Positions 258 to 19,409 of a DNA stretch of 41,651 nucleotides are shown one piece after another (the stretch's first letter is position 1; the number at the start of each line of letters is the position of its first letter). The translations under genes and the position numbers were made by a program. The DNA comes from Escherichia coli (GTDB lineage Bacteria > Pseudomonadota > Gammaproteobacteria > Enterobacterales > Enterobacteriaceae). The DNA lies in assembly GCF_003334335.1 (NCBI RefSeq), contig NZ_QOWQ01000037.1. One strand, written 5' to 3'. The notes beneath the pieces are model-generated. The model saw nothing but the letters and a program-made list of their open reading frames with translations. It searched no databases and was not told the origin of the DNA.

Positions 258-1793
258 ATGGCTACATCAGTACAGACAGGTAAAGCTAAGCAGCTCACAT
301 TACTTGGATTCTTTGCCATAACGGCATCGATGGTAATGGCTGTTTATGAATACCCTACCTTCGCAACATCGGGCTTTTCATTAGTCTTCTTCCTGCTATT
401 AGGCGGGATTTTATGGTTTATTCCCGTGGGACTTTGTGCTGCGGAAATGGCCACCGTCGACGGCTGGGAAGAAGGTGGTGTCTTCGCCTGGGTATCAAAT
501 ACTCTGGGGCCGAGATGGGGATTTGCAGCGATCTCATTTGGCTATCTGCAAATCGCCATTGGTTTTATTCCGATGCTCTATTTCGTGTTAGGGGCACTCT
601 CCTACATCCTGAAATGGCCAGCGCTGAATGAAGACCCCATTACCAAAACTATTGCAGCACTCATCATTCTTTGGGCGCTGGCATTAACGCAGTTTGGTGG
701 CACGAAATACACGGCGCGAATTGCTAAAGTTGGCTTCTTCGCCGGTATCCTGTTACCTGCATTTATTTTGATCGCATTAGCGGCTATTTATCTGCACTCC
801 GGTGCCCCCGTTGCTATCGAAATGGATTCGAAGACCTTCTTCCCTGACTTCTCTAAAGTGGGCACCCTGGTAGTATTTGTTGCCTTCATTTTGAGTTATA
901 TGGGCGTAGAAGCATCCGCAACCCACGTCAATGAAATGAGCAACCCAGGGCGCGACTATCCGTTGGCTATGTTACTGCTGATGGTGGCGGCAATCTGCTT
1001 AAGCTCTGTTGGTGGTTTGTCTATTGCGATGGTCATTCCGGGTAATGAAATCAACCTCTCCGCAGGGGTAATGCAAACCTTTACCGTTCTGATGTCCCAT
1101 GTGGCACCAGAAATTGAGTGGACGGTTCGCGTGATCTCCGCACTGCTGTTGCTGGGTGTTCTGGCGGAAATCGCCTCCTGGATTGTTGGTCCTTCTCGCG
1201 GGATGTATGTCACAGCGCAGAAAAACCTGCTGCCAGCGGCATTCGCTAAAATGAACAAAAATGGCGTACCGGTAACGCTGGTCATTTCGCAGCTGGTGAT
1301 TACGTCTATCGCGTTGATCATCCTCACCAATACCGGTGGCGGTAACAACATGTCCTTCCTGATCGCACTGGCGCTGACGGTGGTGATTTATCTGTGTGCT
1401 TATTTCATGCTGTTTATTGGCTACATTGTGTTGGTTCTTAAACATCCTGACTTAAAACGCACATTTAATATCCCTGGTGGTAAAGGGGTGAAACTGGTCG
1501 TGGCAATTGTCGGTCTGCTGACTTCAATTATGGCGTTTATTGTTTCCTTCCTGCCGCCGGATAACATCCAGGGTGATTCTACCGATATGTATGTTGAATT
1601 ACTGGTTGTTAGTTTCCTGGTGGTACTTGCCCTGCCCTTTATTCTCTATGCTGTTCATGATCGTAAAGGCAAAGCAAATACCGGCGTCACTCTGGAGCCA
1701 ATCAACAGTCAGAACGCACCAAAAGGTCACTTCTTCCTGCACCCGCGTGCACGTTCACCACACTATATTGTGATGAATGACAAGAAACACTAA
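258..1793 (+). CDS. gadC: Glutamate:GABA antiporter (APC family), acid resistance
   Basis: 511-aa ORF, multi-pass hydrophobic protein; sequence recognised as GadC (XasA); lies directly downstream of gadB. Confidence 0.95.
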
Positions 1794-1817
1794 CCATGTC
1801 TGAATGGTTATAAGACA

Positions 1818-1846
1818 AGGGAGCGATAATTCATCGCTCCCTTTTT
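1818..1846 (+). terminator. Rho-independent terminator after gadC
   Basis: agggagcgat / atcgctccct 10-bp stem, 5-nt loop, followed by a T5 run. Confidence 0.7.
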
Positions 1847-1923
1847 CGTGCTTGCTGTCGTATTGACTTAACGGGGATAAGTACGAGAATGAGCGCACAT
1901 CTGTTTACCGGAAACCAGCACAT

Positions 1924-3243
1924 ATGGATATCTGCTCCCGAAACAAGAAATTAACGATTAGAAGACCAGCGATACTAGTTGCACTGGCACTTTTACTGTG
2001 TAGTTGTAAAAGCACGCCTCCAGAGTCCATGGTGACACCACCAGCAGGTTCAAAGCCACCAGCCACGACGCAACAATCGTCACAACCGATGCGTGGCATC
2101 TGGCTGGCCACGGTTTCTCGGCTCGACTGGCCACCGGTTTCCTCGGTTAACATTAGTAACCCCACCAGCCGGGCCCGTGTACAACAACAGGCGATGATCG
2201 ACAAACTGGATCATCTGCAACGTCTCGGCATAAACACGGTCTTTTTCCAGGTCAAGCCGGACGGTACCGCCCTGTGGCCATCGAAAATTTTGCCGTGGTC
2301 CGATCTTATGACCGGTAAGATTGGTGAAAATCCGGGTTACGATCCGCTGCAATTTATGCTCGACGAAGCCCACAAGCGTGGGATGAAAGTACACGCCTGG
2401 TTTAACCCCTATCGCGTATCGGTTAATACGAAGCCCAGTACTATCAGGGAACTGAATAGCACTCTGTCTCAACAACCGGCGAGCGTCTATGTGCAACACC
2501 GCGACTGGATCAGAACGTCTGGCGATCGCTTTGTCCTCGACCCGGGCATCCCTGAGGTTCAGGACTGGATCACATCAATAGTCGCAGAAGTGGTTTCCCG
2601 CTATCCCGTAGATGGCGTGCAGTTTGACGACTATTTCTATACGGAGTCACCGGGTTCACGGCTAAATGATAACGAAACGTACCGTAAATACGGAGGCGCA
2701 TTTGCGTCAAAAGCAGACTGGCGGCGCAACAATACTCAGCAGTTAATTGCAAAGGTATCGCACACCATTAAAAGCATTAAGCCGGGAGTCGAATTTGGTG
2801 TTAGCCCGGCAGGCGTGTGGCGTAACCGATCACACGATCCGCTCGGTTCCGATACCCGAGGCGCGGCAGCCTATGACGAATCCTACGCTGACACCCGTCG
2901 ATGGGTGGAACAAGGATTGCTGGATTACATTGCTCCCCAAATTTACTGGCCGTTCTCACGGAGTGCCGCGCGTTATGACGTGTTGGCAAAATGGTGGGCG
3001 GATGTCGTTAAACCGACCAGGACCCGCCTGTATATCGGTATCGCCTTCTATAAAGTGGGTGAACCTTCAAAGATAGAGCCAGACTGGATGATTAACGGCG
3101 GCGTACCGGAACTGAAAAAGCAGCTCGATCTTAACGATGCTGTGCCCGAAATTAGCGGCACCATCTTGTTCCGTGAGGACTATCTGAATAAACCGCAGAC
3201 TCAACAAGCGGTCAGCTATCTGCAAAGTCGCTGGGGCAGTTAA
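1924..3243 (+). CDS. yddW: Putative lipoprotein, glycoside-hydrolase-like (YddW)
   Basis: 439-aa ORF; N-terminus has a signal peptide ending in a Cys-containing lipobox-like segment (ALLLCSCK); recognised as YddW from position and sequence. Confidence 0.85.
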   Translation: MDICSRNKKLTIRRPAILVALALLLCSCKSTPPESMVTPPAGSKPPATTQQSSQPMRGIWLATVSRLDWPPVSSVNISNPTSRARVQQQAMIDKLDHLQRLGINTVFFQVKPDGTALWPSKILPWSDLMTGKIGENPGYDPLQFMLDEAHKRGMKVHAWFNPYRVSVNTKPSTIRELNSTLSQQPASVYVQHRDWIRTSGDRFVLDPGIPEVQDWITSIVAEVVSRYPVDGVQFDDYFYTESPGSRLNDNETYRKYGGAFASKADWRRNNTQQLIAKVSHTIKSIKPGVEFGVSPAGVWRNRSHDPLGSDTRGAAAYDESYADTRRWVEQGLLDYIAPQIYWPFSRSAARYDVLAKWWADVVKPTRTRLYIGIAFYKVGEPSKIEPDWMINGGVPELKKQLDLNDAVPEISGTILFREDYLNKPQTQQAVSYLQSRWGS

Positions 3244-3260
3244 ACTCCCATTCTTACTTT

Positions 3261-3295
3261 GTAACAAGCCGGTGCTTTACCCACCGGCTTGTTAC
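3261..3295 (+). terminator. Strong hairpin after yddW (14-bp perfect stem)
   Basis: gtaacaagccggtg / caccggcttgttac with a 7-nt loop; downstream T-run is weak, so terminator function is inferred. Confidence 0.5.
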
Positions 3296-3606
3296 CCTCT
3301 TAAACTATCCCACTAATAATCATGCTTACTTAAGTCAAATTAACCACACTTAGTTAAACAGCCATAAATCCCTAATAAAAATGTATGAATATGAAAAACC
3401 ATACGATATTCGCTGTCACCGAAAAATAATTACGATGGGCTATACTCTTCTGAAGAACAGTAGCGTAGATTGAAACTGTCCTAAATCGCTTATTTCTTTT
3501 CAGTATATCTTCATATTTCAGGAGAATATGGTGCAGTTAGTCGATCTCGCACGTTGCGTTTCATTTTGATTCCGTCTGATTTCCCAGCCTTATAAGGGTG
3601 TGAATT

Positions 3607-4989
3607 ATGGAGATGTATTTTAAAAGAATGAAAGATGAGTGGACCGGACTTGTCGAACAGGCAGATCCGCCCATTCGTGCTAAAGCCGCGGAAATTGCCG
3701 TTGCGCATGCTCATTATCTGAGTATCGAGTTTTATCGAATTGTCCGCATCGACCCGCATGCCGAAGAATTCTTGAGTAATGAACAAGTTGAGCGGCAGTT
3801 GAAGAGTGCGATGGAACGCTGGATTATTAACGTGCTTTCTGCCCAGGTTGACGATGTCGAAAGGCTAATACAAATCCAGCATACCGTCGCGGAAGTGCAT
3901 GCCCGCATAGGAATTCCGGTAGAAATTGTCGAGATGGGGTTTCGGGTGCTGAAAAAAATCCTCTATCCGGTGATCTTCTCTTCGGATTATTCCGCCGCAG
4001 AAAAACTTCAGGTCTACCATTTCTCGATTAACAGTATTGATATCGCGATGGAAGTGATGACTCGCGCGTTTACCTTTAGTGACAGTAGTGCCTCAAAGGA
4101 AGATGAAAACTATCGTATCTTCTCGTTACTGGAAAACGCCGAAGAAGAAAAAGAACGACAAATAGCCTCAATACTTTCATGGGAAATAGATATTATCTAT
4201 AAAATCCTGCTGGATTCTGATTTAGGCAGTAGTTTGCCTTTAAGCCAGGCTGATTTTGGCCTGTGGTTTAACCATAAAGGTCGACATTATTTTAGTGGTA
4301 TTGCCGAAGTAGGCCATATCTCCCGTCTGATTCAGGATTTCGACGGTATTTTCAATCAAACCATGCGTAACACCAGAAATTTGAATAACAGAAGTCTGCG
4401 GGTGAAATTTTTATTACAGATAAGAAATACCGTATCGCAAATTATTACCTTGCTGCGTGAATTGTTTGAAGAAGTATCGCGCCACGAAGTCGGTATGGAT
4501 GTACTGACGAAATTACTTAACCGCCGTTTCCTACCGACTATCTTCAAACGCGAAATTGCCCATGCCAACCGGACCGGTACACCGCTGTCAGTGCTGATTA
4601 TTGACGTTGATAAATTCAAAGAGATCAACGATACGTGGGGCCATAACACTGGTGATGAAATTCTGCGTAAAGTCTCTCAGGCCTTTTATGACAACGTCCG
4701 CAGTAGTGATTATGTTTTCCGCTACGGGGGCGATGAATTTATCATTGTTTTGACTGAAGCTTCTGAAAACGAAACGTTACGTACCGCAGAACGTATTCGC
4801 AGTCGGGTGGAGAAAACCAAACTGAAAGCCGCAAACGGCGAAGATATTGCCCTCTCACTTTCCATCGGTGCCGCCATGTTTAATGGTCATCCTGACTATG
4901 AGCGCCTCATTCAAATAGCCGATGAAGCTCTGTATATCGCCAAAAGACGAGGTAGAAACCGTGTTGAACTCTGGAAAGCCAGTCTTTAG
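3607..4989 (+). CDS. dosC: Diguanylate cyclase with globin-coupled haem O2 sensor domain
   Basis: 460-aa ORF; C-terminal GGDEF domain with the GGDEF motif itself (RYGGDEFIIV); size and context match DosC (YddV). Confidence 0.9.
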   Translation: MEMYFKRMKDEWTGLVEQADPPIRAKAAEIAVAHAHYLSIEFYRIVRIDPHAEEFLSNEQVERQLKSAMERWIINVLSAQVDDVERLIQIQHTVAEVHARIGIPVEIVEMGFRVLKKILYPVIFSSDYSAAEKLQVYHFSINSIDIAMEVMTRAFTFSDSSASKEDENYRIFSLLENAEEEKERQIASILSWEIDIIYKILLDSDLGSSLPLSQADFGLWFNHKGRHYFSGIAEVGHISRLIQDFDGIFNQTMRNTRNLNNRSLRVKFLLQIRNTVSQIITLLRELFEEVSRHEVGMDVLTKLLNRRFLPTIFKREIAHANRTGTPLSVLIIDVDKFKEINDTWGHNTGDEILRKVSQAFYDNVRSSDYVFRYGGDEFIIVLTEASENETLRTAERIRSRVEKTKLKAANGEDIALSLSIGAAMFNGHPDYERLIQIADEALYIAKRRGRNRVELWKASL

Positions 4990-16908: not shown

Positions 16909-17919
16909 ATGAAGGCTGCAGTTGTTACGAAGGATCATCATGTTGACGTTACGTATAAAACACTGCGCTCACTGAAACATGGCGAAGCCCTGCTGAAAAT
17001 GGAGTGTTGTGGTGTATGTCATACCGATCTTCATGTTAAGAATGGCGATTTTGGTGACAAAACCGGCGTAATTCTGGGCCATGAAGGCATCGGTGTGGTG
17101 GCAGAAGTGGGTCCAGGTGTCACCTCATTAAAACCAGGCGATCGTGCCAGCGTGGCGTGGTTCTACGAAGGATGCGGTCATTGCGAATACTGTAACAGTG
17201 GTAACGAAACGCTCTGCCGTTCAGTTAAAAATGCCGGATACAGCGTTGATGGCGGGATGGCGGAAGAGTGCATCGTGGTCGCCGATTACGCGGTAAAAGT
17301 GCCAGATGGTCTGGACTCGGCGGCGGCCAGCAGCATTACCTGTGCGGGAGTCACCACCTACAAAGCCGTTAAGCTGTCAAAAATTCGTCCAGGGCAGTGG
17401 ATTGCTATCTACGGTCTTGGCGGTCTGGGTAACCTCGCCCTGCAATACGCGAAGAATGTCTTTAACGCCAAAGTGATCGCCATTGATGTCAATGATGAGC
17501 AGTTAAAACTGGCAACCGAAATGGGCGCAGATTTAGCGATTAACTCACACACCGAAGACGCCGCCAAAATTGTGCAGGAGAAAACTGGTGGCGCTCACGC
17601 TGCGGTGGTAACAGCGGTAGCTAAAGCTGCGTTTAACTCGGCAGTTGATGCTGTCCGTGCAGGCGGTCGTGTTGTGGCTGTCGGTCTACCGCCGGAGTCT
17701 ATGAGCCTGGATATCCCACGTCTTGTGCTGGATGGTATTGAAGTGGTCGGTTCGCTGGTCGGCACGCGCCAGGATTTAACTGAAGCCTTCCAGTTTGCCG
17801 CCGAAGGTAAAGTGGTGCCGAAAGTCGCCCTGCGTCCGTTAGCGGACATCAACACCATCTTTACTGAGATGGAAGAAGGCAAAATCCGTGGCCGCATGGT
17901 GATTGATTTCCGTCACTAA
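16909..17919 (+). CDS. adhP: Zn-dependent alcohol dehydrogenase (propanol-preferring)
   Basis: Product begins [14 protein letters not shown] at the ATG at 16909, after an aaaggagga RBS (336 aa); CGVCHTD and GHEGxG motifs. Confidence 0.9.
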
Positions 17920-18064
17920 GAGGCCTTTGCTGCGACTGCCATGTTCGGGTCGCAGCATCGCACACTCTCCAACATGAAATGGCTAAATGGATTATTGTTG
18001 CGTAGGAAGGAACAATAATGATAGTGTTCCCAGTGAAGGAACGCTACTGAGAGTAAAGACACTA

Positions 18065-18349
18065 ATGAAAATGGCCAATCATCCCCGCCCGGGGGACATT
18101 ATTCAGGAATCACTGGACGAACTTAATGTCAGCCTGCGCGAGTTTGCCAGAGCAATGGAAATTGCTCCCTCAACGGCAAGCCGATTGCTGACAGGAAAAG
18201 CAGCTTTGACGCCAGAAATGGCGATTAAACTTTCCGTGGTGATCGGCAGTTCGCCGCAAATGTGGCTGAATCTGCAAAACGCCTGGAGTCTGGCAGAGGC
18301 AGAAAAAACAGTGGATGTGTCGCGATTACGCCGTCTGGTTACGCAATAA
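18065..18349 (+). CDS. yddM: HigA/XRE-family helix-turn-helix protein (orphan antitoxin-like)
   Basis: HTH segment [34 protein letters not shown]; the start at 18065 (MKMANH, 94 aa) is chosen over the ORF-track start at 17987. No toxin-sized partner ORF fits between adhP and this gene. Confidence 0.7.
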
Positions 18350-18735
18350 AAAAATGGCACTTTATAAAGCGCCATTTAGAACTGATGACAAACGCAACAT
18401 TGCCTGATGCGCTACGCTTATCAGGCCTACACGTTCACTGCAATCTATTGGATTTGAAGGGTTTTCATGCCGGATAAGGCGTTCACGCCGCATCCGGCAT
18501 GAACAAAGCCTACGTTGTCTACAATATGAAAATGACGCCTTTTACAGCGCCATTTGAAACTGATGACAAACGCAACATTGCCTGATGCGCTACGCTTATC
18601 AGGCCTACACGTTCACTGCAATCTATTGGATTTGAAGGGTTTTCATGCCGGATAAGGCGTTCACGCCGCATCCGGCATGAACAAAGCCTACGTTGTCTAC
18701 AATATGAAAATGGCGCCTTTTACAGCGCCATTTTC
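18350..18735. repeat. Tandem duplication (2 x ~178 bp) of a BIME unit, each with two REP palindromes and a terminator-like hairpin
   Basis: REP 'gcctgatgcgctacgcttatcaggcctac' at about 18402 and 18580; REP 'gccggataaggcgttcacgccgcatccggc' at about 18469 and 18647; the units are near-identical by eye. Flanking hairpins aaaatggcgcc-ttttacag-cgccatttt sit between convergent yddM and fdnI. Confidence 0.9.
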
Positions 18736-18755
18736 AGCTTAAAGTTCAAAAGAGA

Positions 18756-19409
18756 TTATATCCCTTCTTCACTCTCTTTTTTCGCTTCTGCCTTCTCGAT
18801 TTCACGATACCAGCGCGGATGGTGTTTCTTCGCCCAGCGACGACTTACCTTCCCTTCGATCATCCCTTTAATCGATCCTTTCACCCAAAATGCCATATAC
18901 ATATGGATCAGGATGGCGTGGATCAGGATGATACCCGCAGCCGCGTGGATCAGCAGGCTGTAGCGAACAACCTGCATCGGGAAGTACTGCGCAAAGTACG
19001 GACGCCAGATAATCACCCCGGTCACCAGCAGCACGAAAATCATGCTCATGATCGACCAGAACATCATCTTTTGCCCGGCGTTGTACTTACCGACATCCGC
19101 CACTTTATGCTCATTGCCTTTCAATACTTCGACAATGTTCAACAGCCACGGAATATCTTTCTTATCCGGGATGTTGTGATGCACAAAACGCACAAACATA
19201 AACATCAGTGCGACGAAAATCGCAATGCCGAAGAACGGGTGCAAAATGCGTCCCATCTGCGGCGTACCGAAGGTTTGCGTCAGCCATTGCAGCGTCGGGA
19301 AGAAGAACGAAATCCCGGACAGCGCCACCAGGAAGAAGCAAATCACCACGGTCCAGTGACAGGCGCGATCAATAAATTTGGTGCGCACAATCATTTTCGA
19401 CTTACTCAT
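18756..19409 (-). CDS. fdnI: Formate dehydrogenase-N gamma subunit (cytochrome b556)
   Basis: ORF track starts at 19451; the recognised product begins [19 protein letters not shown] at 19409 (217 aa); multi-pass membrane protein; 8-bp overlap with the fdnH stop. Confidence 0.9.

Follow-up and report, generated by a model that had tools for sequence, protein, structure and literature searches.

yddM of Escherichia coli K-12-type strains, a solitary HigA antitoxin gene at a chromosomal site that carries higB-higA in relatives

The HigB-HigA pair of plasmid Rts1 from Proteus vulgaris (PDB 4MCT/4MCX, 6CHV) is a type II toxin-antitoxin (TA) system whose toxin gene comes first. Its toxin HigB is a ribosome-dependent mRNA endonuclease. 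HigA alone represses the promoter Phig approximately 211-fold via the two operators O1 and O2, which overlap the -35 and -10 elements (PMC12266136). HigA of Pseudomonas aeruginosa and GraA of P. putida are dimers with a fully folded N-terminal helix-turn-helix (HTH) that recognise palindromes of their own promoters also without the toxin. Orphan antitoxins are abundant in E. coli (PMC10790755). The solitary state of yddM in K-12 is already known from the literature: of the TA20 pair ('parE-2/higA-2' of the AIEC strain NRG857c) only the antitoxin is encoded by HS and K-12, while the toxin is found in AIEC/UPEC B2 strains (PMC7232551). The structure of the protein has likewise been solved, under the name 'YddM from E. 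coli CFT073' (2ICT/2ICP; PMC3968373). Here we compare the yddM locus of one E. coli contig with these systems, with the E. coli population and with orthologous loci of other genera.

The yddM locus and its leader

We analysed a stretch of 41,651 nt (41.6 kb) from E. coli, contig NZ_QOWQ01000037.1 of assembly GCF_003334335.1, which is called the window throughout. The neighbourhood of yddM has the E. coli gene order maeA-adhP-yddM-fdnIHG. Approximately 1.2 kb around the gene are 100% identical to K-12-derived strains, and the coding sequence is 100% identical to that of MG1655. The features of the locus are collected in Table 1.

Table 1. Features of the yddM locus in window coordinates
Feature	Coordinates	Strand	Basis and remarks
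adhP (alcohol dehydrogenase)	16909..17919	+	ORF list; annotated adhP in matching E. coli records; upstream neighbour
GC-rich hairpin (TGCTGCGAC / GTCGCAGCA) 3' of adhP	17928..17957	+	inverted repeat; invariant in both alignments
Palindromic unit of 29 nt, 9-nt arms ATTATTGTT / AACAATAAT, 11-nt centre; contains O1	17991..18019		inverted repeat
Putative operator O1, TGTTGC-N7-GGAAC	17996..18013		motif scan; overlaps presumed -35 and spacer
Putative -10 hexamer GATAGT, between O1 and O2	18020..18025	+	position conserved in leader comparison
Putative operator O2, TGTTCC-N7-GGAAC	18025..18042		motif scan; covers presumed transcription start
Deletion-junction region	18045..18064	+	MAFFT alignment versus alternative gapped alignments
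yddM, 94-aa HigA-family antitoxin / XRE helix-turn-helix, solitary here	18065..18349	+	ORF, profiles, structure identity
Palindromic hairpin directly 3' of the yddM stop	18352..18377		called terminator-like on the minus strand
REP/BIME array, 178-nt unit x 2.1	18360..18733		repeat and hairpin detection
fdnI (formate dehydrogenase-N gamma subunit)	18756..19409	-	ORF list and cross-genus loci; downstream neighbour

The open reading frame that ends at 18349 on the plus strand starts at 17987 in its longest form (120 aa) and yields 94 aa from the ATG at 18065. The latter form is the correct gene, because its product matches PDB 2ICP/2ICT over residues 1-94. The 120-aa form was rejected: the HigA profile aligns only from its residue 29, the crystallised protein has 94 residues, and the extension crosses the operators, where the sequence is scrambled by an inversion in two other alleles (L046 and L047, see below).

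A reading of this DNA made from its letters alone (the sequence-only reading) had taken the gene for a HigA-type antitoxin and proposed a profile search as a check. This search bore the assignment out. Against the NCBIfam model TIGR02607 ('HigA family addiction module antitoxin') YddM scored 93.7 bits at a cutoff of 47.7 (E 4.5e-27), which is approximately twice the equivalog cutoff, with a match that spans model positions 1-80 of 81. Residues 14-65 form a Cro/C1 (XRE) HTH domain (Pfam HTH_3, E 5.1e-9), and the protein shows 100% identity to the solved structure 2ICP/2ICT ('antitoxin HigA'). Further solved HigA-type structures matched by YddM are those from Proteus vulgaris (E 1e-18), P. putida GraA, Coxiella VapI and E. 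coli YbaQ. The yddM product is a bona fide HigA.

The adhP stop at 17919 sets the start of the gap to yddM, which thus covers 17920..18064. Its length is exactly the 145 nt given by the sequence-only reading, which had considered it too small for a toxin gene; none is indeed present. Two small open reading frames of the gap (25 aa on the plus and 48 aa on the minus strand) were rejected as a novel toxin, since they lie across the adhP hairpin and the leader, which diverges fast. The hairpin itself is kept in toxin-bearing and toxin-less alleles alike and is probably the end of the adhP transcript. An intact adjacent toxin gene is missing, such that the window locus is not a complete type II TA module, for which the toxin is defining.

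For the detection of toxin remnants we built a HigB profile from 23 distinct HigB proteins. In six-frame translations of positions 17850-18800, which include the gaps on both sides of yddM, and of the whole window the profile scored at most 2.2 bits. As positive controls, remnants of only 14-29 aa in strains TR01 and FP75 (see below) scored 20 and 34 bits. A short-word blastn search with five higB genes found nothing above noise in the window, and no HigB-like reading frame was present across its entire 41.6 kb. The remnant search that had been proposed for the two gaps therefore returned no recognisable remnant in the window, and the toxin was found in relatives.

Within the leader of yddM the motif TGTT[GC]C-N7-G[GC]AAC occurs twice at a distance of 29 nt and has no other occurrence in the window. 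Most enterobacterial loci (L001-L034 and the E. coli loci L046-L053), as far out as Erwinia, Chimaeribacter and Xenorhabdus, have it at the corresponding place 5' of higB or, where yddM is solitary, of yddM, with one background match in all loci scanned. Half-site conservation extends across genera, with freely varying 7-nt spacers, a pattern that is the signature of protein-binding sites. All K-12-type toxin-less alleles keep the half-sites; the TR01 deletion allele has O1 only. A sigma-70 consensus scan of the leader called no promoter at threshold, so that the promoter position given here is deduced solely from cross-genus conservation. At the putative -10 position distant relatives read TATACT or TATGAT. 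A SELEX study of the RpoD holoenzyme reported a site in the adhP-yddM interval (PMC3946193).

The palindromic unit that contains O1 is itself polymorphic. In the toxin-less strains 2013C-4538 and XH988 (L046 and L047, positions ~627-655) the segment between the 9-nt repeats is the exact reverse complement of that in the window and reads GTTGCGTAGGAAGGAAC versus GTTCCTTCCTACGCAAC, i.e. a micro-inversion polymorphism inside O1 that preserves the half-sites. A contig of 214 nt attributed to Clostridium sp. CMCC3677 (L035) matches the yddM leader and first 36 codons of E. coli without any difference, both operators included, and is almost certainly E. coli contamination of that assembly.

Downstream of yddM lies a BIME array, as the sequence-only reading had recognised. 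The repeat contains REP hairpins at 18464-18503 and 18642-18681, in line with the clustered imperfect palindromes of approximately 35 nt that define REP/BIME elements. A third REP copy is located at 35835-35864 (GCCGGATAAGGCGTT(C/T)ACGCCGCATCCGGC, one mismatch), and each E. coli genome has tens of matching places. An Rfam scan gave sub-threshold REP-related matches only (REP-derived family naRNA4). The array is highly polymorphic: the 178-nt unit is present twice in the window and once or not at all in other strains. Where it is absent, fdnI begins approximately 50 nt past yddM. Strains AHB4 and MLI108K3 carry an IS200-family insertion at the array site.

higB at orthologous loci and its recurrent loss

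To assess the state of the site in the species we used a sample of 5,426 complete E. coli genomes that was searched with the region. In one class of genomes the adhP-yddM interval holds an annotated 'RelE/ParE family toxin'. In strain S1-CAM-04-C this gene is 279 nt long, and its TGA stop shares one nucleotide with the ATG of yddM (TGATG). The product of 92 aa is HigB-like (PF05015, E 1.5e-17) and is identical to Rts1 HigB at 52 of 92 positions, the C-terminal YEDYH and the LHPL histidine being aligned. The reversed TA gene order with higB first is thus present at orthologous loci, not in the window.

DNA of higB was found in 1,331 of the 5,426 genomes, in one copy each and always beside yddM; at the nucleotide level approximately 4,095 genomes, including the K-12 types, gave no match. 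An identical one-base deletion, dG98, is carried by 545 of the 1,331 toxin-bearing genomes and ends the protein after approximately 35 residues. These genomes include ST131, where the NCBI annotation is given as frameshifted. An intact toxin is therefore possible in at most ~786 genomes (14%). Intact higB is under purifying selection (omega 0.04-0.11), from which it follows that the ancestral pair was a maintained module.

The state of the site beyond E. coli was obtained from a scan with YddM over bacteria and archaea, each species being represented by one genome. It provided 41 loci, each of which was compared with HigB, AdhP, MaeA and FdnI. Intact higB directly upstream of the yddM homologue and adjacent to fdnI was found in E. 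albertii, a cryptic Escherichia clade, approximately 13 Citrobacter species, Enterobacter, Pluralibacter and another enterobacterium. Buttiauxella, Cedecea, Chimaeribacter and Erwinia have the higB-yddM pair as well, though in different contexts. In total at least six genera carry higB immediately 5' of the yddM orthologue with the 1-nt overlap, and fdnI is the conserved anchor of the site across genera. Since the pair adjoins fdnI across these genera, the paired state is ancestral at the site and the K-12-type allele represents a loss. The sequence-only reading had named orthologous loci that never carry an adjacent toxin as an observation that would speak against it; the toxin is present at many of them.

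Gene content upstream of the pair differs between Citrobacter and Escherichia, while the fdnI side is constant. In many Citrobacter loci (L008-L016, positions 1500-3700) maeA is followed by approximately 2 kb without AdhP match and then by higB-yddM-fdnI.

The toxin has been inactivated independently several times. Besides the K-12-type deletion these losses comprise a different deletion in the O157:H7 strain TR01 that kept the last 47 nt of higB, the dG98 frameshift common to the 545 genomes, and a deletion in Citrobacter sp. FP75 that left 27 codons. In C. portucalensis higB is frameshifted, and in Xenorhabdus and Chimaeribacter californicus it is present as remnants or absent.

The TR01-type allele, seen in only 1-2 of the 5,426 genomes, has a composite structure (L004, positions 1102-1246). 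Its flanks and its yddM nucleotides are identical to the toxin-bearing haplotype L001. A K-12-like O1 unit of 29 nt, bounded by the inverted repeat, sits like a cassette between the L001-like flank and the 47 nt from the higB 3' end. The junctions of the unit are the outer ends of the repeat arms, and O2 and the -10 element are missing.

The seven K-12-type toxin-less E. coli alleles in the sample all have the same junction (TR01 being a separate deletion), which fits a single deletion event. In the MAFFT alignment the breakpoints are two ATGAA motifs, one in the higB start region and one at the yddM start, such that the old higB 5' UTR would have been fused to yddM by microhomology. An alternative alignment leaves a degenerate remnant of the higB 3' end of at most 20-26 nt (TACTG...CAC-TAA); with the last higB codons being CAC-TGA, four toxin-less alleles have CACTGATG at the corresponding place and the window has CACTAATG. 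The two alignments cannot be told apart and the breakpoints are ambiguous, though both imply the loss of at least 250 of the 279 nt of the toxin gene. Outside the operators the leader is strongly divergent between toxin-less and toxin-bearing E. coli haplotypes. The deletion is therefore old, or the history of the haplotypes is more complex than a single step. The sequence-only reading of yddM as a solitary regulator derived from a decayed TA module thus stands with respect to its TA origin, while decay in place gives way to a deletion that left no protein-level remnant.

Retention and proposed function of YddM

Despite the frequent absence of the toxin, yddM is present in 5,413 of the 5,426 E. 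coli genomes, in full length in 5,409, while 13 genomes gave no match. K-12 shares an identical YddM protein with several further toxin-less strains, with toxin-bearing B2 strains and with E. albertii. Pairwise dN/dS of yddM against the window is 0-0.16, and the constraint spans the whole protein. Among eight toxin-less alleles we counted 10 synonymous and 4 nonsynonymous segregating sites, where neutrality predicts approximately 30 nonsynonymous ones. Toxin-bearing alleles gave 35 synonymous and 2 nonsynonymous sites, and the difference from the 10:4 of the toxin-less alleles had a Fisher p of 0.04 in a small, non-random sample chosen by divergence. The higher nonsynonymous share in toxin-less alleles could reflect partly relaxed constraint. 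Given the borderline p value and the nature of the sample we do not rely on this difference. One of the very few genomes with disrupted yddM is that of E. coli E6474, in which a Tn3-family TnAs1 transposase gene abuts yddM and the N-terminal third has been removed (L054, positions 1-1687).

We consider it likely, with a probability of roughly 0.8, that YddM is the antitoxin half of an ancestral higBA pair whose toxin has been deleted, and that it now acts as a self-repressing HigA dimer and stand-alone transcription factor. The scenario would be as follows. An old, vertically inherited chromosomal higB-higA module adjoined fdnI in Escherichia, Citrobacter and relatives. A deletion of approximately 270-320 nt in the K-12-like lineage would have removed higB and spared the promoter, the two palindromic operators and the intact higA, i.e. 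yddM. By analogy with Rts1 HigA, the nearest homologue that has been characterised, a YddM dimer may bind O1 and O2 over the -35 and -10 elements and repress its own transcription without the toxin. Autorepression is the most economical mechanism, because Rts1 HigA alone represses in the absence of its toxin. YddM would then persist as a low-abundance XRE-type transcription factor with few additional chromosomal sites. The occupation of O1 and O2, the repression, the place of the promoter and the reason for retention are all predictions.

Published data on YddM are in line with such a role. A ChIP-exo study confirmed YddM as DNA-binding in vivo in MG1655 (PMC6237786), with which the reading as solitary regulator agrees. 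CRISPR perturbation led to differentially expressed genes consistent with the binding sites of YddM (bioRxiv 10.64898/2025.12.20.695731). Genetic interactions of yddM with stress regulators have been published, and a Keio yddM mutant exists, whose published phenotype is uncomplemented. Taken together with the conservation, these ChIP-exo, expression, genetic-interaction and Keio data favour the view that YddM still serves as a minor transcription factor.

A different reason for retention would be anti-addiction, an idea that has been discussed in general terms (PMC10790755). Here the solitary YddM would be kept mainly to neutralise incoming HigB from a plasmid, a phage or recombination with toxin-bearing E. 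coli, and would protect from post-segregational killing or from re-acquisition of the toxin. YddM of K-12-like strains is identical residue for residue to the HigB-paired B2 protein, so that its toxin-binding surface is fully preserved, and purifying selection acts across the whole protein. YddM is predicted to neutralise a cognate HigB, since B2 strains combine the same protein with a HigB that is intact and selectively constrained. HigBA relatives are present on E. coli plasmids and Stx phages, but they are all distant, with at most 57% identity for the toxin and at most 51% for the antitoxin; no closer plasmid or phage relative was found. Type II TA pairs at such distance are usually insulated from cross-talk. 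Matches above 90% on plasmids are chromosomes mislabelled as plasmids. The low identities weaken the anti-addiction explanation, and we regard it as unlikely, albeit the foremost of the alternatives. Combining it with the regulatory role, one may speculate that YddM has been taken over as a core-genome regulator with its toxin-binding surface kept for species-wide immunity against higB re-acquisition, the 29-nt O1 unit being a recombination-prone element that repeatedly remodels the promoter; this we consider doubtful.

That yddM lost any role with the toxin and is slowly decaying would agree with the slightly larger nonsynonymous share in toxin-less alleles, with its occasional disruption (TnAs1 in E6474) and with the 13 genomes that lack a match. 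Full length in 5,409 of 5,426 genomes, 4 nonsynonymous sites instead of ~30, conserved half-sites and DNA binding in vivo oppose a non-functional relic, which is very improbable and largely refuted by the conservation data. A toxin partner encoded elsewhere in K-12-like genomes could in principle act in trans, as split TA systems are known in other bacteria (PMC10790755). The DNA-level search found higB in one place per genome, always beside yddM, and nowhere in ~4,095 genomes, and the protein-level search, which was confined to the 41.6-kb window, found no HigB-like frame there, such that we give this arrangement hardly any credit. The viability of a yddM deletion strain, which exists as the Keio mutant, speaks against it as well. 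Refuted, finally, is the notion of an ordinary stand-alone XRE regulator that never belonged to a TA module. It would account for yddM standing alone in the window and in approximately 75% of E. coli genomes, but it conflicts with the orthologous loci in at least six genera that have higB upstream with a 1-nt overlap and with a score of twice the HigA cutoff.

The locus is a clean, well-documented case in which a chromosomal TA pair has lost the toxin and kept the antitoxin as a conserved protein that binds DNA. Annotations of yddM should name a solitary HigA rather than a TA module, and the gene provides a simple experimental system for studies on the role of solitary antitoxins.

Comparison with known systems

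The yddM module resembles HigB-HigA of Rts1 in having the toxin gene first, where a toxin is present, and in the sequences of both proteins: the toxin of the orthologous site shares the 52 of 92 residues given above with the Rts1 endonuclease, and YddM is identical to Rts1 HigA at 33 of 81 positions. Two palindromic operators over the promoter are a further likeness, those of yddM being putative. In contrast to the plasmid-borne Rts1 system, the yddM module is chromosomal and vertically inherited next to fdnI. It has putative operators (TGTTSC-N7-GSAAC) and an O1-O2 spacing of 29 nt of its own, and in the window it has no toxin gene. HigA of P. aeruginosa and GraA are structurally close to 2ICP (Z 12.6), but their toxin partners are still present and their operator sequences differ.

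The second solitary HigA-type protein of E. coli K-12 is YbaQ (PDB 2EBY), which is HigA-like with an HTH and matches YddM with E 5.6e-9. K-12 has YbaQ alone, whereas in B2 strains a toxin is present or pseudogenised, and ChIP-exo has likewise confirmed that YbaQ binds DNA. YbaQ differs in its locus and its length of 113 aa and is distant in sequence.

Mobile relatives form a separate group. Stx1a- and Stx2a-converting phages and phage GER2 (H171-H185) carry a HigA relative approximately 50% identical to YddM, which in GER2, the sole annotated record among the phage matches listed, lies beside a gene annotated 'plasmid maintenance system killer'. The Stx-phage higBA is a mobile lineage distinct from the chromosomal one. 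A plasmid record that matches the toxin at >90% (H141, NZ_CP141089.1, 4.94 Mb) is evidently a chromosome filed as plasmid. As the >90% matches include this misfiled chromosome, the plasmid count for the toxin lineage is effectively zero.

YddM/HigA of CFT073 and TA20 of NRG857c are the identical protein at the same chromosomal site; these B2 strains retain the toxin gene, whereas the window carries the toxin-less allele. What the present analysis contributes beyond this published state is how often each allele occurs in the population, which state is ancestral across genera, that remnants are absent, that the layout with two operators is conserved, and that the toxin was lost independently more than once. 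These additions are increments rather than a new kind of thing and leave the current understanding unchanged: the locus takes its place beside TA20, as the allele in which the antitoxin stands alone.
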